From: a virus | Taxonomy: Duplodnaviria; Heunggongvirae; Uroviricota; Caudoviricetes | Virus record (IMG/VR): IMGVR_UViG_2681813268_000005 | Direction: 5' to 3' (one strand) | DNA: 7,825 bases | Shown here: positions 498-7,825 of the stretch, one piece after another | How the letters are laid out: each line of letters opens with the position of its first letter | How positions within the stretch are numbered: position 1 is the stretch's first letter | Made by a program: the position numbers and the translations under genes | Notes under the pieces: model-generated | Database searches by the model: none | Seen by the model: the letters and a program-made list of their open reading frames with translations, nothing else | What the model was told of the DNA's origin: nothing

Positions 498-779
498 ATG
501 AAAATCGAAGAATTACGTGAAATTTTTAGTGAAGATGGCCTCTATACTGTGCGCGTTGAGAATGGCGCTATTGTCAGCCACTGCCTTCCAGACTACACAA
601 TTCTGATAATTCAGCCGTCTTTGCCAGCAGGCACGGGCGGCGCTCTCACGCATTTAAATCTGATTGGTACCAGCATCCCCCATGCACTGAAGAACAGGCC
701 GAATGGCTCATTCAGTGTTACCGCAGGCGCGGATGCGAGGTTAAAAAAGCCCTTAGCCTCGACTACCGTCACTGGATAA
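498..779 (+). CDS. Small hypothetical prophage protein, in the position of rem in Qin-like prophages (hok - rem - ydfU order)
   Basis: ORF with AAGGA SD (485-489) 8 nt before ATG 498 (the track's 495 start is a TTG); N-terminus MKIEELREIFSEDGLYTVRVENGAIVSHCLPDY looks protein-like, the C-terminal third is low complexity. Assignment by synteny only. Confidence 0.4.
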   Translation: MKIEELREIFSEDGLYTVRVENGAIVSHCLPDYTILIIQPSLPAGTGGALTHLNLIGTSIPHALKNRPNGSFSVTAGADARLKKPLASTTVTG

Positions 780-1913: not shown

Positions 1914-2294
1914 ATGACTGAACGCATAGAATTTGTTTTGCCTTACCCGCCAACGGTGAACACTTACTGGCGTCGTCGTGGCAGCACATATTTTGTATCA
2001 AAAGCCGGGGAGCGTTATCGCCGGGCAGTGGCGCTTATTGTTCGCCAGCAGCGGCTGAAATTAAGCCTGTCCGGAAGGTTGGCAATAAAAATTATTGCAG
2101 AACCACCGGATAAGCGCCGCCGTGACCTGGACAATATTCTGAAAGCGCCGCTGGATGCGCTGACGCATGCGGGGTTGCTAATGGACGATGAGCAGTTTGA
2201 TGAAATCAATATCGTTCGTGCTCAGCCAGTATCTGGTGGACGTCTGGGGGTGAAGATTTACCCCATAATGCTTGAAGGGCAGGTCAAAAAATGA
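1914..2294 (+). CDS. rusA: RusA-family Holliday junction resolvase (crossover junction endodeoxyribonuclease)
   Basis: 126 aa; LPYPPTVNTYWRRRG N-terminus and DKRRRDLDN...DDEQ acidic catalytic motifs characteristic of RusA; typical size; ATG immediately follows the upstream stop. Confidence 0.85.
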   Translation: MTERIEFVLPYPPTVNTYWRRRGSTYFVSKAGERYRRAVALIVRQQRLKLSLSGRLAIKIIAEPPDKRRRDLDNILKAPLDALTHAGLLMDDEQFDEINIVRAQPVSGGRLGVKIYPIMLEGQVKK

Positions 2295-3112
2295 AACTGG
2301 AAGATTTACCGAAATACTACTCCCCAAAATCCCCCGGCCTGACTGATGCATCGGCCTCAACGTCGAAAGATGCGCTGAGTATCACTGATGTGATGGCCGC
2401 GCAGGGCATGACACAGAATCGGGCTGAGATGGGGGTTTCTGCGTTCCTTGGGAAAATGGGCATTAGTATGAATGACAGAGAGCGGGCAACAGAATTGCTG
2501 ACAGAATATGCACTCAGTCGGTGTGATCGCGTGGCGGCGTTAAGAAAACTCCCGGCAGAAATAAAACCGGCAGTGATGCGTATTATGGCTTCGTATGCGT
2601 TTGAAGATTATGCCCGTAGCGCGGCGAGCAAAAAACAGTGCCCCTGCTGTCACGGAAAAAAATTTATTGAAAGCGAGGTTTTTACAAACAAGATCCAGTA
2701 TCCGGATGGTAAGCCGCCGGTATGGGCAAAGTGTACGAAAGGTGTGTATCCGTCTTACTGGGAAGAATGGAAAAAAGTCAGGGAGGTGGTAAAAGTTGCC
2801 TGTCCGGAGTGTGGCGGAAAGGGTGAGGTTTCCACCGCCTGTAAGGATTGCCGTGGGCGTGGTGTCGCCATTCATCGTGAAGAGTCGGTAAAACGTGGTA
2901 TGCCTGTTATCAGAGACTGCCAGCGTTGTGGTGGTCGTGGCTGTGAAAGGCTGCCATCAACGGAGGCATTTAATGCCATATGCAAAGTGACGAGTGCTAT
3001 CACGCTTGATACGTGGAAAAAATCAGTGAAACGCTTTTACGATACGTTGGTGGTTCGGTTTGACATTGAAGAGGCATGGGCGGAGCGGCAGTTAAAGAGG
3101 GTAACGCGATAG
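2291..3112 (+). CDS. Late-gene antitermination protein Q (lambda-Q family, 273 aa, expanded zinc-binding region)
   Basis: N-terminus MKLEDLPKYYSPKSPGLTD...ITDVMAAQGM parallels lambda Q (MRLESVAKFHSPKSPMMSD...GTDVMAAMGM, from memory); one degenerate and three perfect CxxCxGxG motifs; ATGA start/stop overlap with rusA; followed directly by a lambda-like PR'/qut/tR' module. Confidence 0.8.
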   Translation: MKLEDLPKYYSPKSPGLTDASASTSKDALSITDVMAAQGMTQNRAEMGVSAFLGKMGISMNDRERATELLTEYALSRCDRVAALRKLPAEIKPAVMRIMASYAFEDYARSAASKKQCPCCHGKKFIESEVFTNKIQYPDGKPPVWAKCTKGVYPSYWEEWKKVREVVKVACPECGGKGEVSTACKDCRGRGVAIHREESVKRGMPVIRDCQRCGGRGCERLPSTEAFNAICKVTSAITLDTWKKSVKRFYDTLVVRFDIEEAWAERQLKRVTR

Positions 3113-3117
3113 TGTTG

Positions 3118-3168
3118 TTGATTTTTCCCGAATCTGTGGTAAATTTGCTCTAACGATGGGCGTTTTAT
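3118..3168 (+). promoter_or_regulatory. Late promoter PR' with Q-utilisation (qut) region and sigma70-dependent pause element
   Basis: TTGATT (3118-3123), 16-nt spacer, extended -10 TGgTAAATT (3137-3145); AACGAT -10-like pause inducer at 3152-3157; the stretch GGTAAATTTGCTCTAACGATGGG closely resembles lambda PR' GGGTAAATTTGACTCAACGATGGG (from memory). Predicted TSS near 3152. Confidence 0.65.
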
Positions 3169-3194
3169 GCCTGACGTTAGAAGATTTTTTACAC

Positions 3195-3216
3195 CCCGCC
3201 GCCTGGCGGGTTTTTT
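3195..3216 (+). terminator. tR'-like rho-independent terminator of the short PR' leader RNA
   Basis: CCCGCC (3195-3200), loop GCCT, GGCGGG (3205-3210), then TTTTTT (3211-3216); about 60 nt downstream of the predicted TSS. Confidence 0.65.
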
Positions 3217-3338
3217 ATGACTGAAATCGCGTCAGTACAGTAAACGCGCTGGTGGCGGTGAATACCTGTCTTTCAGCTTGCTGGCTTTTTCGACAAGAGT
3301 TATTGGTGTGTCACGTTAACCGGAAAAGGGAAAAAGAC

Positions 3339-3536
3339 ATGCTAAAACAGCAGGATATGACAGAAACCGCCAGAGTGGTGTTTAATGAATTAAGCGTTAC
3401 CGAACCGGCGACAGTCGGGGAGATAGCGCAGAATACTTACCTTTCACGCGAACGCTGCCAGTTAATACTGACCCAGCTGGTTATGGCGGGTCTGGCAGAC
3501 TATCAGTTCGGTTGTTACAGACGCCTTCCGCAGTGA
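3339..3536 (+). CDS. 65-aa hypothetical protein, possible small winged-helix/HTH DNA-binding protein
   Basis: ATG 3339 preceded by a purine-rich GGAAAAGGGAAAAAGAC; segment ATVGEIAQNTYLSRERCQLILTQLVMAGLADY has helix-turn-helix character; an identical 65-aa ORF recurs at 4576-4773. The track's longer 3252 start is a GTG extension not conserved in copy 2. Confidence 0.55.
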   Translation: MLKQQDMTETARVVFNELSVTEPATVGEIAQNTYLSRERCQLILTQLVMAGLADYQFGCYRRLPQ

Positions 3537-3550
3537 AGGCTTTTTTATTT
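3523..3550 (+). terminator. Rho-independent terminator overlapping the orf65 stop codon
   Basis: GCCTTC (3523-3528), loop CGCAGT, GAAGGC (3535-3540), then TTTTTTATTT. Confidence 0.55.
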
Positions 3551-3563
3551 GTGGTAAATGGGC

Positions 3564-3594
3564 GGCTGGTGGGTGTTAGGGGCACCCACCAGCC
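3564..3594 (+). repeat. Perfect 12-bp inverted repeat (hairpin, 7-nt loop) in the leader upstream of the methyltransferase gene
   Basis: GGCTGGTGGGTG (3564-3575), loop TTAGGGG, CACCCACCAGCC (3583-3594); no U-tract follows; preceded by TGTGGTAAATGGGCGG, which resembles the PR' extended -10. Confidence 0.6.
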
Positions 3595-3686
3595 ATCTGC
3601 TCATGCGTTGGGTTCACAAGCAAACCTCAGGCCCACTGCTTTGCGCAAAAGCAGAATGAGCCTATCAGAGACAGGCTTAATGATCC

Positions 3687-3803
3687 ATGCTTAATACTGT
3701 AAAAATATCCAGTTGCGAGTTAATCAACGCCGACTGCCTGGAATTTATCCGGTCGTTACCCGAAAATTCTGTTGACCTGATAGTCACGGACCGGCAGAAA
3801 TAA
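3687..3803 (+). pseudogene. N-terminal stub of the DNA methyltransferase gene (38 codons, then out-of-frame stop)
   Basis: 3687-3792 matches the 5' end of the full methyltransferase gene (4924-5029) with one substitution; homology ends at 3792, where the sequence switches to Q-gene sequence; the methyltransferase frame stops at TAA 3801-3803. Confidence 0.7.
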
Positions 3804-4356: not shown

Positions 4357-4407
4357 TTGATTTTTCCGGAATCTGTGGTAAATTCGTCATAACGATGGGC
4401 GTTTTAT
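4357..4407 (+). promoter_or_regulatory. Second PR'/qut copy (divergent allele)
   Basis: TTGATT (4357-4362), 16-nt spacer, TGgTAAATT (4376-4384), AACGAT pause element 4391-4396; differs from copy 1 at several positions in the initial transcribed region. Confidence 0.6.
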
Positions 4408-4433
4408 GCCTGACGTTAGAAGAGTTTCTACAA

Positions 4434-4455
4434 CCCGCCGCCGAGCGGGTTTTTT
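4434..4455 (+). terminator. Second tR'-like terminator
   Basis: CCCGC (4434-4438), loop CGCCGA, GCGGG (4445-4449), TTTTTT (4450-4455). Confidence 0.6.
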
Positions 4456-4575
4456 ATGACTGAAATCGCGTCAGTACAGTAAACGCGCTGGTGGCGGTGA
4501 ATACCTGTCTTTCAGCTTGCTGGCTTTTTCGACAAGAGTTATTGGTGTGTCACGTTAACCGGAAAAGGAAAAGAC

Positions 4576-4773
4576 ATGCTAAAACAGCAGGATATGACAG
4601 AAACCGCCAGAGTGGTGTTTAATGAATTAAGCGTTACCGAACCGGCGACAGTCGGGGAGATAGCGCAGAATACTTACCTTTCACGCGAACGCTGCCAGTT
4701 AATACTGACCCAGCTGGTTATGGCGGGTCTGGCAGACTATCAGTTCGGTTGTTACAGACGCCTTCCGCAGTGA
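4576..4773 (+). CDS. 65-aa hypothetical protein, second copy (identical protein to 3339-3536)
   Basis: Identical translation; a 2-nt indel just upstream removes the spurious N-terminal extension seen in copy 1, supporting the ATG as the true start. Confidence 0.55.
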   Translation: MLKQQDMTETARVVFNELSVTEPATVGEIAQNTYLSRERCQLILTQLVMAGLADYQFGCYRRLPQ

Positions 4774-4787
4774 AGGCTTTTTTATTT
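4760..4787 (+). terminator. Rho-independent terminator after orf65 copy 2
   Basis: GCCTTC (4760-4765), loop CGCAGT, GAAGGC (4772-4777), T-run. Confidence 0.55.
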
Positions 4788-4800
4788 GTGGTAAATGGGC

Positions 4801-4831
4801 GGCTGGTGGGTGTTAGGGGCACCCACCAGCC
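4801..4831 (+). repeat. Second copy of the 12-bp-stem hairpin
   Basis: GGCTGGTGGGTG (4801-4812), loop TTAGGGG, CACCCACCAGCC (4820-4831); identical to 3564-3594. Confidence 0.6.
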
Positions 4832-4923
4832 ATCTGCTCATGCGTTGGGTTCACAAGCAAACCTCAGGCCCACTGCTTTGCGCAAAAGCAGAATGAGCCT
4901 ATCAGAGACAGGCTTAATGATCC

Positions 4924-5982
4924 ATGCTTAATACTGTAAAAATATCCAGTTGTGAGTTAATCAACGCCGACTGCCTGGAATTTATCCGGTCGTTACCCGA
5001 AAATTCTGTTGACCTGATAGTCACGGACCCGCCGTACTTTAAAGTGAAGCCTGAGGGCTGGGATAACCAGTGGAAGGGCGACGATGATTACCTGAAGTGG
5101 CTGGACCAGTGTCTGGCGCAGTTCTGGCGGGTGCTGAAACCTGCCGGAAGTCTTTACCTGTTCTGTGGTCATCGCCTGGCATCTGATATCGAAATCATGA
5201 TGCGTGAACGCTTCAGTGTGCTGAACCATATTATCTGGGCGAAGCCGTCCGGACGCTGGAACGGATGCAACAAGGAAAGCCTGCGGGCGTATTTCCCCGC
5301 CACAGAGCGCATTCTGTTCGCGGAACATTATCAGGGGCCGTATCGTCCGAAAGATGCCGGGTATGCGGCGAAGGGCAGTGCACTGAAACAGCATGTGATG
5401 GCCCCGCTGATTTCTTACTTTCGTGATGCGCGAGCTGCCCTGGGGATAACGGCAAAACAGATTGCAGATGCCACAGGAAAGAAAAACATGGTGTCGCACT
5501 GGTTCAGTGCCGGTCAGTGGCAGTTGCCGAATGAAAGCGATTATCTGAAATTACAGGCGCTGTTTGCCCGGGTGGCAGAAGAGAAGCATCGGCGTGGTGA
5601 ACTGGAAAAGCTCCACCACCAGCTGGTGGATACGTATACCTCACTGAACCGGCAGTATGCGGAGCTGCTGAGTGAATATAAACATCTGCGGCGGTATTTT
5701 GGCGTGACGGTGCAGGTGCCGTATACCGATGTGTGGACGCATAAACCGGTGCAGTTCTATCCCGGGAAACATCCGTGCGAAAAACCGGCAGAAATGCTGC
5801 AGCAGATAATCAGCGCTAGCAGTCGTCCGGGTGACCTGATTGCAGATTTTTTCATGGGGTTGGGTTCGACAGTGAAAGCGGCACTGGCGCTCGGGCGTCG
5901 TGCAATTGGCGTTGAGCTGGAGACTGAACGTTTTGAGCAGACGGTTCGGGAAGTACAGGATTTAGTCAGCCAGAACGGATGA
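4924..5982 (+). CDS. DNA methyltransferase, beta-class N6-adenine/N4-cytosine family (orphan; no restriction endonuclease gene in window)
   Basis: 352 aa; catalytic DPPY motif (VTDPPYF) near the N-terminus and AdoMet-binding FxGxG (DLIADFFMGLGST) near the C-terminus, the beta-class motif order (IV before I); the location between Q and the tRNA cluster is typical of lambdoid and Stx-type prophages. Confidence 0.85.
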   Translation: MLNTVKISSCELINADCLEFIRSLPENSVDLIVTDPPYFKVKPEGWDNQWKGDDDYLKWLDQCLAQFWRVLKPAGSLYLFCGHRLASDIEIMMRERFSVLNHIIWAKPSGRWNGCNKESLRAYFPATERILFAEHYQGPYRPKDAGYAAKGSALKQHVMAPLISYFRDARAALGITAKQIADATGKKNMVSHWFSAGQWQLPNESDYLKLQALFARVAEEKHRRGELEKLHHQLVDTYTSLNRQYAELLSEYKHLRRYFGVTVQVPYTDVWTHKPVQFYPGKHPCEKPAEMLQQIISASSRPGDLIADFFMGLGSTVKAALALGRRAIGVELETERFEQTVREVQDLVSQNG

Positions 5983-6299: not shown

Positions 6300-7319
6300 G
6301 AGTTAATCAACGCCGACTGCCTGGAATTTATCCGGTCGTTACCCGAAAATTCTGTTGACCTGATAGTCACGGACCCGCCGTACTTTAAAGTGAAGCCTGA
6401 GGGCTGGGATAACCAGTGGAAGGGCGACGATGATTACCTGAAGTGGCTGGACCAGTGTCTGGCGCAGTTCTGGCGGGTGCTGAAACCTGCCGGAAGTCTT
6501 TACCTGTTCTGTGGTCATCGCCTGGCATCTGATATCGAAATCATGATGCGTGAACGCTTCAGTGTGCTGAACCATATTATCTGGGCGAAGCCGTCCGGAC
6601 GCTGGAACGGATGCAACAAGGAAAGCCTGCGGGCGTATTTCCCCGCCACAGAGCGCATTCTGTTCGCGGAACATTATCAGGGGCCGTATCGTCCGAAAGA
6701 TGCCGGGTATGCGGCGAAGGGCAGTGCACTGAAACAGCATGTGATGGCCCCGCTGATTTCTTACTTTCGTGATGCGCGCGCGGCCCTGGGGATAACGGCA
6801 AAACAGATTGCAGATGCCACAGGAAAGAAAAACATGGTGTCGCACTGGTTCAGTGCCAGTCAGTGGCAGCTACCGAACGAAAGCGATTATCTGAAATTAC
6901 AGTCGCTGTTTGCCCGGGTGGCAGAAGAGAAACATCAGCGCGGTGAACTGGAAAAGCCCCACCACCAGCTGGTGGATACGTATACGTCACTGAACCGGCA
7001 GTATGTGGAGCTGCAGAGTGAATATAAGCATCTGCGGCGGTATTTTGGTGTGACGGCGCAGGTGCCGTACACGGATGTGTGGACACATAAACCGGTGCAG
7101 TTCTATCCCGGGAAACATCCGTGCGAAAAACCGGCAGAAATGCTGCAGCAGATAATCAGCGCAAGCAGTCGTCCGGGAGACCTGGTTGCAGATTTTTTTA
7201 TGGGCTCAGGTTCAACGGTAAAAGCGGCACTGGCGCTCGGGCGTCGTGCGATTGGCGTTGAACTGGAGACCGGACGTTTTGAGCAGACAGTCAGGGAAGT
7301 TCAGGATTTAATCGTTTGA
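6300..7319 (+). pseudogene. Second DNA methyltransferase copy, 5'-truncated (first ~10 codons and start codon missing), divergent 3' half
   Basis: Homology to the full gene begins at 6300 directly after an in-frame TGA (6297-6299); no ATG before the DPPY codons (6372-6383); first canonical start is GTG 6390, downstream of DPPY. The first ~480 nt are nearly identical to the full copy, the remainder diverges (e.g. DLVADFFMGSGST, different C-terminus). Confidence 0.6.
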
Positions 7320-7658: not shown

Positions 7659-7825
7659 AAATGTCTCACAATTCAGGCGGTTGACTGTTGTCTGGTTTGC
7701 GGGGAGTTTGTTAAAAGAAACTGGCATGGTGAATCCCCCTGTGCGGAGGGGCAATCAGCGAGTAGGTATATGGGATAATCGCGGATTCAGGTGCTGGTAC
7801 TGAATTCACCGGGAGGCACCCGGCA

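Follow-up and report, generated by a model that had tools for sequence, protein, structure and literature searches.

Genes and Repeats around the Spacer

The window analysed here is a 7,825-nucleotide stretch of DNA from a tailed virus (Caudoviricetes, IMG/VR record IMGVR_UViG_2681813268_000005). The gene orf65 (plus strand, 3339–3536; copy 2, 4576–4773) encodes a small winged-helix-like protein with a weak TrmB match below the Pfam cut-off and ends in an intrinsic terminator (plus strand, 3523–3550) that consists of a hairpin at 3523–3540 and the run T6AT3. An N6_N4 DNA methyltransferase gene (Pfam PF01555, E = 7.9e-42) occupies 4924–5982 on the plus strand, and a truncated copy of it begins at 3687. 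Homologues of orf65 are found just upstream of the methyltransferase at about 60 of 80 loci. The prophage methyltransferase described by the Koudelka lab (PMC10810198) is not equivalent to this enzyme, as it belongs to the MT-A70 family, contains a DPPW motif and is encoded in another phage region.

The spacer between orf65 and the methyltransferase measures 150 nt (3537–3686). An earlier note, made from the sequence alone, had stated that these 150 nt recur unchanged at 4774–4923. This is correct, and the run of identity extends further on both sides (3332–3715 equals 4569–4952). The "second copy" belongs to a mosaic, in which the 5′ end of the methyltransferase is joined to internal Q at ~3790. 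None of the 5,426 complete E. coli genomes contains this junction, and the duplication therefore cannot count as independent evidence of conservation. The evidence for conservation is the occurrence of the element in other genomes.

Within the spacer lies the perfect 12-bp inverted repeat that the note had described (GGCTGGTGGGTG at 3564–3575 with CACCCACCAGCC at 3583–3594, separated by a loop of 7 nt). By our own estimate, the chance expectation for such repeats in 7.8 kb is ~0.005. The repeat is indeed not followed by a U-tract, and it fails as an intrinsic terminator in either direction: on the plus strand it is followed by ATCTGCTC, and on the minus strand GCCCA precedes the U residues. 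The near-palindrome CTGCTTTGCGCAAAAGCAG also exists, at 3636–3654 and not at ~3621–3639 as first placed. Finally, GAGCCT (3658–3663) can pair with AGGCTT (3673–3678) just 5′ of the ATG at 3687, which, in agreement with the poor start region noted before, is not preceded by a Shine-Dalgarno sequence. The note had read this pairing as a stem that occludes the start. It overlaps an apparent antisense −10 element (3659–3664), and the sense mRNA may still form the stem.

Elements of the same type were found in 59 phage records and in 1,816 of the 5,426 complete E. coli genomes, with as many as 7 sites in a single genome. They are also present in prophages of Enterobacteriaceae, Mixta, Providencia and Morganella, and their position is always directly upstream of an N6_N4 DNA methyltransferase gene. 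Across several genera, each full-length homologue of the methyltransferase that belongs to the long-spacer type has exactly one covariance-model match directly 5′ of it, and the model assigns equal scores to the two copies in the window. The element is unannotated in every match examined. Searching Rfam with both strands at gathering and permissive thresholds returned no relevant family; the top match, P26, reached 24.2 bits where the gathering score is 36, and covered essentially only a hairpin. IMG/VR searches with the window's own methyltransferase retrieved only relatives with 94–100% identity, and useful homologue diversity was gained with the Providencia and L032 proteins as queries. The homologues from Xenorhabdus and Photorhabdus have one covarying hairpin only, with no three-way junction and no strand preference, and were not counted as members.

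Covariation and Strand Preference

Covariation among 100 distinct homologues supports a fold that consists of a hairpin (P4) and a three-way junction (P1, P3 and P2). Both sides have changed in 20 of the 38 pairs, compared to 12.9 ± 1.2 in shuffled alignments and 4–8 in slid controls. On four of five measures none of 500 shuffles reached the observed value, and the slid controls fell far lower. Read as the minus strand, the alignment has standard pairs in 99.3% of 1,118 cells and double changes at 7 pairs, whereas slid controls for this alignment are only 35–57% paired.

The individual helices differ in how they vary. P4 (minus strand, 3638–3652) is a 5′-terminal hairpin, GCUUU/AAAGC, and forms the core of the near-palindrome. 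Its outer pairs are invariant, and the inner part varies between clades while still pairing. P1 closes the three-way junction by pairing GCCCAUU (minus strand, 3557–3563) with AGUGGGC (3631–3637). Its 7 pairs are 99.4% standard, two basal pairs alternate between G·U and A–U, and one homologue (L011) carries a compensatory GC-to-AU change. P2 is the 12-bp hairpin (minus strand, 3564–3594). The earlier note had proposed covariation of this hairpin across homologous prophages as a check; it is present there, and in the plus-strand alignment 8 of 11 pairs have changed on both sides. In the Providencia sequences and in L216 and L226, the P2 arms are wholly different in sequence and yet complementary. 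Most homologues have an internal loop in P2, and since the stem is perfect in only 4 of the 100, perfection is not the conserved feature. P3 (minus strand, 3595–3625, with arms at 3595–3605 and 3615–3625) is a 10–11-bp arm in which 10 pairs are 99.2% standard and alternate between CG, UA, AU and UG. The weakest helix is P5, the possible GAGCCT/AGGCTT hairpin on the plus strand (3658–3678). It stops 8 nt before the methyltransferase ATG and overlaps the predicted antisense −10 element. Pairing of P5 on the plus strand reaches 81%, with 145 G·U against 26 A·C cells. Among unpaired bases, conserved stretches occur only in the tail UUUYCACAR and in part of the P2 loop.

Several observations indicate which strand this fold suits. 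The P3 pairs are 99.2% standard on the minus strand and only 74.7% on the plus strand, because 215 plus-strand cells are C·A or A·C. Nearly all plus-strand mismatches in P3 are of this kind and correspond to G·U pairs on the minus strand (215 versus 7). RNAalifold assigns −35.3 kcal/mol to the minus strand and −27.5 kcal/mol to the plus strand. Ten of 10 diverse minus-strand sequences adopt the same fold, with minimum free energy structures equal or nearly equal to the centroid and z-scores from −2.5 to −5.9; in 7 of the 10 this fold accounts for 0.27–0.41 of the ensemble. In contrast, the plus-strand folds of the same 10 homologues are mutually inconsistent, account for 0.03–0.17 of the ensemble and have z-scores from −1.1 to −4.1. 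The earlier suggestion that the spacer is a regulatory leader holds in so far as we find a conserved structured regulatory element, but the sense strand that it implied does not, since the fold suits the minus strand far better. Two further pairings, ATGGGC/GCTCAT around the hairpin on the plus strand and a UGUGA/UCACA pseudoknot, are compatible with the sequence but vary too little for covariation to be judged, and both are superseded by the minus-strand model.

Predicted Promoter and Ends of the Antisense RNA

Taken together, the spacer is probably the minus-strand gene for a ~100-nt structured sRNA antisense to the methyltransferase 5′ UTR. The predicted RNA of copy 1 spans 3550–3652 on the minus strand with its 5′ end at 3652. 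Its minimum free energy fold is identical to the centroid (P4 and the three-way junction, z = −4.43), and copy 2 (minus strand, 4787–4889) has the same sequence. Transcription would be directed by the extended −10 element TGATAGGCT (3667 to 3659; copy 2, 4896–4904) and start at ~3652. In this predicted element TG occupies 3667/3666 and the hexamer TAGGCT runs from 3664 to 3659. P4 begins 7 nt downstream of it. The minus-strand consensus TGnTARGCT varies mainly at n and R among the 100 homologues (T 99, G 99, n A63/G24/T11, T 98, A 100, R G67/A32, G 94, C 96, T 100), and TG, TA and the final T are 98–100% kept. The hexamer TAGGCT matches the −10 consensus at 3 of 6 positions only. Located 17 bp upstream of it is a weak −35-like hexamer, TGGATC (minus strand, 3682–3687; consensus TAGATC). 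Within this hexamer is a conserved GATC, and its span takes in the A of the methyltransferase start codon ATG. As it shares 3 of 6 positions with TTGACA, we propose a promoter role for it by inference only. A simple promoter scan found no match on either strand, and missed PR′ itself.

The RNA would begin with the P4 hairpin, followed by the three-way junction (P1 as the closing helix, the P3 arm and the P2 hairpin) and the single-stranded tail UUUYCACAR. In the window P1 ends at 3557, and the single-stranded tail UACCACA follows. The terminator scan detected no canonical minus-strand terminator downstream of P1. Only 2–5 U residues follow P1, two of which are paired within P1, so that the short U-run is partly used by the helix. 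The next and only downstream hairpin on the minus strand is the orf65 terminator read backwards, which is followed by GUCUGU. The 3′ end of the sRNA may extend ~35 nt further to the minus-strand face of this hairpin. Most homologues of the Enterobacteriaceae type contain a minus-strand hairpin ~15–25 nt beyond P1, with or without orf65, and in tails of the Providencia type no hairpin was found beyond P1.

Relation to EcOnc49 and Other Phage RNAs

EcOnc49 is an Hfq-CRAC peak on the minus strand of prophage Sp9 in E. coli O157 Sakai, at 1772764–1772808 in NC_002695.1, and passed in only 3 CRAC data sets (Tree et al. 2014, Table S2, PMC4104026). Two anchors that flank the site, AsxR and EcOnc03, give an offset of +134 to +139 from NC_002695.1 to NC_002695.2. 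With this offset, EcOnc49 falls at ~1772901–1772945 in NC_002695.2 and therefore inside the spacer between ECs_1779 and ECs_1780 (1772830–1772979). The Sp9 spacer is identical to that of the window at 149 of 150 nt. On the window the peak covers ~3608–3652 of the minus strand, with its 5′ edge within ~3 nt of the predicted +1. By coordinate conversion between the genome versions, the element maps onto EcOnc49.

The two agree in locus (the orf65 homologue ECs_1779 and the methylase ECs_1780) and in strand (antisense to the methylase), and the peak extends over the first ~45 nt of the predicted RNA. EcOnc49 differs in being a crosslinking peak only, without northern blot, mapped ends, structure, promoter, phylogenetic distribution or function. 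Assignment of CRAC reads from near-identical prophage copies can be ambiguous. The name EcOnc49 was found in no other paper of the literature collection searched, and EcOnc51 and EcOnc52 do not lie at methyltransferase spacers.

Short antisense RNAs opposite a regulatory or late-control gene are familiar from lambdoid phages. The OOP and paQ RNAs of lambda are of this type, and both are thought to damp expression, in the case of OOP through cleavage of the duplex by RNase III. The predicted RNA resembles them in being short, antisense, lambdoid-encoded and opposite a gene of this kind. In contrast, OOP and paQ are located at cII and Q, their sequences are unrelated, and OOP is a simple hairpin with a canonical terminator, whereas the RNA predicted here would have a three-way junction and no clear terminator, and would be bound by Hfq. 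A second group for comparison comprises the anti-sRNAs AgvB, AsxR and EcOnc03, together with StxS, from EHEC prophages, which are likewise Hfq-bound sRNAs encoded downstream of PR′ in the same prophages, some of them antisense or convergent to late genes. EcOnc50 is similarly antisense and sits just upstream of stx2A. AgvB, AsxR and EcOnc03 are 51–60 nt long and StxS 74 nt, all with a 3′ terminator hairpin, a U-tail and a variable 5′ seed. Compared to this group, the RNA discussed here is longer, almost fully paired and located upstream of the methyltransferase; these sRNAs have Rfam families, none of which matches the element. The Pas sRNAs (preprint) were considered and rejected, given their terminator hairpins and other gene context; a methylase is never mentioned in that paper.

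Alternative Explanations

The reading closest to the earlier note is a cis-regulatory leader on the sense strand, in which the 5′ UTR controls translation of the methyltransferase or serves as a processing site for RNase III or RNase E. Such a leader and the antisense RNA need not exclude each other. The late transcript must include this region, the ATG lacks a Shine-Dalgarno sequence, and P1, P2 and P4 are Watson–Crick paired on both strands. P5 adjoins the ATG, and its wobble pairs, like some of those in P2, favour the plus strand, so the sense leader may also be structured. We nevertheless consider this explanation unlikely: P3 pairs poorly on the plus strand and is missed there by RNAalifold, the sense folds of the 10 homologues are inconsistent and make up a small share of the ensemble, no Rfam family matches, and two methyltransferase homologues (L024 and L040) occur without the element. 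A different origin of the symmetry is suggested by P2, whose plus-strand arm contains the Chi octamer GCTGGTGG. In the window this octamer is present on both strands (3565–3572, plus; 3586–3593, minus). The earlier note makes no mention of this Chi site. The plus-strand octamer is oriented as reported for active sites when RecBCD enters lambdoid genomes at the right end (PMC12315714). The element could be primarily a two-way Chi at the DNA level that protects phage DNA, whether replicating or packaged, against RecBCD, with the hairpin symmetry as a by-product. The window contains 14 Chi octamers where 0.35 are expected, phage LLS (H60) carries the element, and among the 100 homologues the plus-strand Chi is intact in 76, with 62 non-consensus cells in the 5′ arm against 92 in the 3′ arm. 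The minus-strand Chi is intact in only 16, however, and the Providencia-type homologues, L216 and L226 have no Chi and a fully compensated P2. Chi is a single-stranded DNA signal that needs no inverted repeat or hairpin, several clades retain the helix and dispense with the octamer, and the covariation of P1, P3 and P4 is left unexplained. A primary role as Chi is thus very unlikely, and the plus-strand arm of P2, which doubles as a Chi site, is best read as being under a second constraint.

The remaining explanations concern promoters, operators and peptides. Directly after the orf65 terminator lies TGTGGTAAATGGGCGG (3550–3565), in which the earlier note had seen a possible promoter remnant. 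The sequence match on which this reading was based is real: the same 10-mer, TGTGGTAAAT, forms the extended −10 of PR′ at 3135–3144 and is followed 13 nt later by GGGCG (AACGATGGGCG at 3152). In the spacer, too, GGGCG comes after the 10-mer. Many homologues also carry TGTGAAAAT, which looks like an extended −10. One could therefore propose that TGTGGTAAATGGG is a PR′ late promoter in degenerate or duplicated form, or else a separate sigma-70 promoter that serves the methyltransferase. The 16-mer is, however, a lineage variant of the conserved CTGTGRAAATGGGCGG and a local variant of CTGTG(A/G)AAATGGGCGG, and its occurrence is independent of the Q/PR′ type. It is also found in Sakai Sp9 and Stx2a_WGPS2, where the annotated antiterminators have 176 and 113 aa compared to 273 aa in the window, and where no AACGATGGG pause element was found in the flanks examined. 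Conversely, SfV and mEp460 have a PR′ of the AACGATGGG type and yet carry TGTGAAAATGGGCGG in place of TGTGGTAAATGGGCGG. The 16-mer thus accompanies more than one Q/PR′ type and so is not the remnant of a promoter. Most variants cannot satisfy both key −10 positions (A−11 and T−7): GAAAAT, GGAAAT, GTAAAT and TGAAAT lose A−11, and the alternative register lacks T−7. The site also has no −35, no AACGAT pause element and no match in the promoter scan. The motif instead includes AATGGGC, the plus-strand face of the P1 3′ strand, and L011 has lost the TG while keeping compensatory pairing in P1. Promoter function at this position is accordingly highly improbable. We regard as still more doubtful that the palindromes are protein operators, for example for the orf65 protein as a controller of the methyltransferase. 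The tight linkage of the two genes, the near-perfect DNA palindrome of P4 with its invariant outer bases, and the small winged-helix partner known for a different phage methyltransferase (PMC10810198) would fit this idea. On the other hand, the element is fully conserved at no fewer than 13 loci without detectable orf65, and neither the covariation of three long helices to unrelated sequences nor a strand-specific tolerance of G·U is expected of operators. Least credible is attenuation by a translated leader peptide, ATG GGC GGC TGG TGG GTG TTG TAG (MGGWWVL). The ATG inside AAATGGG is invariant, and many homologues contain the 7-codon frame with tandem Trp codons, but TGG TGG is inherent to the Chi octamer and no usable Shine-Dalgarno spacing exists. 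Indels of 1 nt in the P2 loop alter the frame and length of the peptide, Providencia has an unrelated one, and the Xenorhabdus frame is shifted. Because 1-nt indels shift the frame between homologues, both MGGWWVL and a 19-aa minus-strand ORF were rejected.

Possible Function

As to what the antisense RNA may do, our best guess is control of the methyltransferase and the late transcript. We infer this function entirely and hold it tentatively, at somewhat less than even confidence. In lysogens the RNA would pair with sense transcripts that leak past tR′ and the orf65 terminator. The resulting duplex of ~100 bp could be cut by RNase III or otherwise be destabilised, so that the methyltransferase, and perhaps the tRNA, toxin and lysis genes further downstream, would stay silent. 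Q-driven late transcription would then overwhelm both the RNA and the promoter from which it is made. The RNA might also act in trans in an Hfq-dependent manner; the hallmark of such sRNAs, a Rho-independent terminator hairpin with a 3′ U-tail, was not found downstream of P1 on the minus strand.

A bolder version would make the antisense RNA the gatekeeper of the whole late operon. Here the RNA, Hfq and RNase III would set the threshold at which PR′ transcripts express the methyltransferase, phage tRNAs and Shiga toxin genes, the last of which lie ~1.5 kb downstream in phages such as phiP27 or Stx2a_WGPS2. With its conserved GATC in the −35 region and the overlap with the methyltransferase start codon, the promoter could moreover be tuned by methylation through Dam or the phage enzyme, which would close a methylation-sensing feedback loop. 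We consider this version quite improbable. The hypothesis of an antisense RNA is directly testable in public dRNA-seq, Term-seq and CRAC data from Sakai.

Although one in three complete E. coli genomes and prophages of several enterobacterial genera carry the element, Rfam has no entry for it, and a single line of a supplementary table is all that has been recorded of it. The encoded RNA would be an unusual sRNA, as it is predicted to be almost fully paired around a three-way junction and Hfq-bound without a classic terminator. One of its stem arms would serve two purposes, as RNA helix and as Chi site. Since the element sits between the late promoter and the late genes, and in some Stx phages ~1.5 kb upstream of stx2, the antisense RNA could affect the leakiness or timing of methyltransferase, toxin and lysis gene expression.

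Genomic Setting of the Spacer

The 7.8 kb of the window form the late-control region of a prophage that is lambdoid and resembles Stx phages. A hok/sok remnant is followed by a DUF968/HNH gene, rusA and a gene for a 273-aa Q antiterminator (2291–3112), and then by the late promoter PR' (TGTGGTAAAT at 3135, an extended −10 with the pause element AACGAT) and its terminator tR' (3195–3215). In Stx phages, this PR'-tR' unit (here at 3135–3215 and 4374–4455) gives rise to a short RNA of the StxS type. Next come orf65, a 65-aa winged-helix-like ORF with its own terminator (3339–3536 and 4576–4773), the 150-nt spacer (3537–3686) and an N6_N4 DNA methyltransferase gene, the first copy of which starts at 3687. 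The tRNA genes ileZ-argN-argO, and after them STnc100, complete the order. The remnant at the left edge (1–280) is sok/hok-like and matches Rfam sok with 55.6 bits, just below the gathering score; the STnc100 sRNA at the right edge (7695–7825) is truncated and scores 91 bits.

The methyltransferase gene starting at 3687 is broken at about 3790, where it is joined to the interior of another Q copy. Two more units come after it, the second running PR'-orf65-spacer-methyltransferase-tRNA and the third, truncated at its 5' end, methyltransferase-tRNA; the junction at about 6296 joins sequence just past tRNA argO to approximately codon 10 of the methyltransferase. The junction at 3790 occurs in none of the 5,426 complete E. 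coli genomes searched, and the internal duplication is likely to reflect either a rare rearrangement or paralogous prophages joined in a chimeric assembly. For this reason, the identity of the two spacer copies, which is real (3332–3715 equals 4569–4952), cannot serve as evidence of conservation.

Conservation and Linkage to the Methyltransferase

Other genomes supply the evidence for conservation. Among 5,426 complete E. coli genomes, 1,816 carry the 150 nt, at as many as seven places each, with no annotation of the element among the matches listed. The sequence is also present in 59 phage records, among them SfV, mEp460, phiP27, cdtI, LLS and Stx2a/2c phages. In every annotated case a small ORF comes first, then the spacer of about 150 nt and then the methyltransferase. 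This unit sits 3' of quite different Q genes, and in phiP27 and Stx2a_WGPS2 it lies about 1.5 kb upstream of stx2.

More distant loci were gathered via the methyltransferase protein, in one search with one genome per species and three of IMG/VR. Once duplicates were removed, this type of spacer was represented by 100 distinct sequences, from Escherichia, Enterobacter, Klebsiella, Salmonella, Citrobacter, Kosakonia, Buttiauxella, Mixta, Providencia, Morganella and others. In each locus, a covariance model detects the element exactly once, immediately 5' of the methyltransferase. Of 80 species-level loci, about 60 have orf65 adjoining the methyltransferase on its 5' side; in at least 13 loci with no detectable orf65 homologue, the element still accompanies the methyltransferase. 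The orf65 product matches TrmB under the Pfam cut-off and recalls PNB-2, the winged-helix partner subunit of a different prophage methyltransferase (PMC10810198). A Trabulsiella prophage (L009) carries a weak extra covariance-model match at 513–629 (+) (E = 0.0027), about 800 nt 5' of the true element.

Homologues from Xenorhabdus and Photorhabdus (L047–L084) were rejected as the same element: their spacer is shorter and holds a single covarying hairpin, some 60–75 nt upstream of the methyltransferase start. The sequence of this hairpin is wholly different between species (for example L061 and L069), with complementarity kept; that of L061 resembles a two-way terminator. Some of these methyltransferases start with GTG, preceded by a two-codon mini-ORF, ATGGAATAG.

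A Conserved Fold on the Minus Strand

The sequence features listed in the earlier note are all in the window, with one position to correct: the near-palindrome lies at 3636–3654, about 15 nt to the right of its original placing. The perfect 12-bp inverted repeat spans 3564–3575 and 3583–3594, with a 7-nt loop and no U-tract, and GAGCCT/AGGCTT occupies 3658–3663 and 3673–3678. Covariation supports a fold of five helices. In a structural alignment of the 100 sequences, both partners have changed in 20 of 38 pairs, compared with 12.9 ± 1.2 pairs in column shuffles and 4–8 with slid partners. The 12-bp hairpin, for which covariation among homologues had been proposed as a check, corresponds to helix P2; 8 of its 11 pairs covary, and its arms are entirely different yet complementary in Providencia-type spacers (GACUGUAAAGGUG/CACCCUUACAGUC) and in homologues L216 and L226. 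The hairpin thus withstands the refutation that the earlier note had set for it. What is conserved is the helix and not its perfect form, which appears in 4 of the 100 distinct sequences; in most, a small internal loop interrupts the stem. No Rfam family matched either strand of the spacer. On the minus strand, P2 and P3 together (3563–3627 and 4800–4864) resemble the Pseudomonas sRNA P26 below threshold (24.2 bits; gathering score, 36), which is probably just hairpin similarity.

The earlier note was right that the spacer is more than filler, but it read the structure as a sense-strand leader, and the fold is conserved specifically on the minus strand. Helix P3 is only 74.7% paired on the plus strand, where its mismatches are nearly all C·A or A·C (215 cells, against 7 G·U); since these read as G·U on the opposite strand, they pair there. 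Taken jointly, P1–P4 have 95.7% canonical cells on the minus strand versus 89.9% on the plus strand. RNAalifold returns the full three-way junction at −35.3 kcal/mol for the minus strand, and −27.5 kcal/mol with P3 absent for the plus strand. In a separate minus-strand alignment of 51 diverse sequences, 99.3% of cells are standard over 22 pairs (35–57% in slid controls), with seven doubly changed pairs. When folded singly, 10 of 10 diverse minus-strand sequences share one structure, the minimum-energy fold being equal or close to the centroid: a hairpin (P4), a junction of P1 (7 bp), P3 (10–11 bp) and P2 (11–13 bp), and a 6–7-nt tail. This structure holds 0.27–0.41 of the ensemble in seven of the ten, with z from −2.5 to −5.9. 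Plus-strand folds of the same sequences are mutually discordant and poorly defined. The sole helix favoring the plus strand is P5 (GAGCCT/AGGCTT), which adjoins the methyltransferase ATG.

Alternative Origins of the Motif and the Hairpin

The spacer had also been proposed to hold a PR' remnant. The motif TGTGGTAAATGGGCGG is indeed present at 3550–3565 and starts with the 10 nt of the PR' extended −10. The 16-mer is this locus's version of a conserved CTGTG(A/G)AAATGGGCGG, which varies independently of PR' type. Sakai Sp9 and Stx2a_WGPS2 share TGTGGTAAATGGGCGG exactly; the retrieved flanks of both lack the AACGATGGG pause element, and the antiterminators annotated there fall well short of the window's Q in length. 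SfV and mEp460 have a AACGATGGG-type PR', yet their spacer has TGTGAAAATGGGCGG. In most variants, the two critical −10 positions cannot be retained together. Furthermore, AATGGGC forms the 3' strand of P1 on the minus-strand RNA (GCCCAUU), a pairing supported by a compensatory double change in homologue L011 and by basal G·U/A-U alternation. We therefore reject the remnant and consider the likeness to PR' coincidental.

A feature that had gone unremarked is that the P2 stem arm GCTGGTGG is a Chi octamer, so that the hairpin consists of two inverted Chi sites. The 7.8-kb window contains 14 such octamers against 0.35 expected, or about 9 in some 5.3 kb of unique sequence: 1022, 1080, 3248, 3565, 4487, 4802, 5622 and 6968 on the plus strand, and 1486, 1538, 3586, 4823, 5616 and 6962 on the minus strand. 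Within the methyltransferase coding sequence, a 14-bp perfect palindrome, CCACCAGCTGGTGG (5616–5629 and 6962–6975), comprises overlapping Chi sites, one per strand. In P2, the 5' arm keeps its plus-strand Chi intact in 76 of 100 homologues and is less variable than its partner; the minus-strand Chi is intact in 16. We read Chi as a second constraint on one arm of an RNA helix rather than as the cause of the hairpin. Clades without Chi retain the helix.

A Probable Antisense RNA and Its Possible Role

The minus strand also carries a predicted promoter. The conserved block under P5 reads TGnTARGCT, in which T, G, T, A and the last T are kept at 98–100% and n is free (A63/G24/T11), the signature of an extended −10. 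The predicted −10 runs from 3664 to 3659 (−), with TG at 3667/3666 and +1 at 3652; the first G of P4 is invariant and lies exactly 7 nt 3' of the motif. Since the −10 hexamer (3/6 matches) and the −35 (TGGATC) are weak, we treat the promoter as a prediction. This −35 overlaps the methyltransferase ATG and contains a conserved GATC, 2 nt 5' of the ATG. The RNA would end either just past P1 or about 35 nt further on, where it reads the orf65 terminator in reverse.

A published Hfq-bound RNA signal coincides with the spacer on this strand. EcOnc49 is an orphan Hfq-crosslinking peak in E. coli O157 Sakai prophage Sp9 (minus strand, 1772764–1772808, NC_002695.1; Tree et al. 2014, Table S2, PMC4104026). 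With a genome-version offset of +134 to +139, derived from the anchors AsxR (1.27 Mb) and EcOnc03 (1.77 Mb), it converts to approximately 1,772,901–1,772,945 in NC_002695.2. The peak then falls within the ECs_1779–ECs_1780 spacer, which differs by one base from that of the window, antisense to the methylase and with its 5' edge on the predicted +1 (1,772,945). The strand labels of Table S2 are reliable, because EcOnc15 agrees with the mapping of StxS in Sy et al. 2020. EcOnc49 is named in no other paper of the literature searched, and no follow-up was found there. Another antisense RNA, the northern-validated and Hfq-dependent EcOnc50 (Sakai NC_002695.1, 1266899–1266967 (−), locus L326), lies between argO and stx2A and likewise faces the late operon in a region of this kind.

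The predicted sRNA is perfectly complementary to the methyltransferase leader from about −35 to −135. The methyltransferase ATG lacks a Shine-Dalgarno sequence (CTTAATGATCCATG, 3678–3689 and 4915–4926). We tentatively suggest cis-antisense control of this leader as the most economical function, one that is possible rather than probable. In a lysogen, the RNA would pair with sense transcripts that escape tR' and the orf65 terminator, and pairing would trigger RNase III cleavage or decay of the sense transcript; after induction, Q-modified transcription would override the antisense RNA. Hfq binding and a conserved unpaired tail (UUUYCACAR) leave room for targets in trans, and P5 may give the sense leader a structure of its own near the ATG.

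The earlier finding is thus real, and more interesting than a plain spacer, but its interpretation needs reversing. The element is best described as neither a sense leader nor a PR' remnant, but as a widespread, unannotated family of antisense sRNA genes with a three-way-junction fold, glimpsed once before as EcOnc49.
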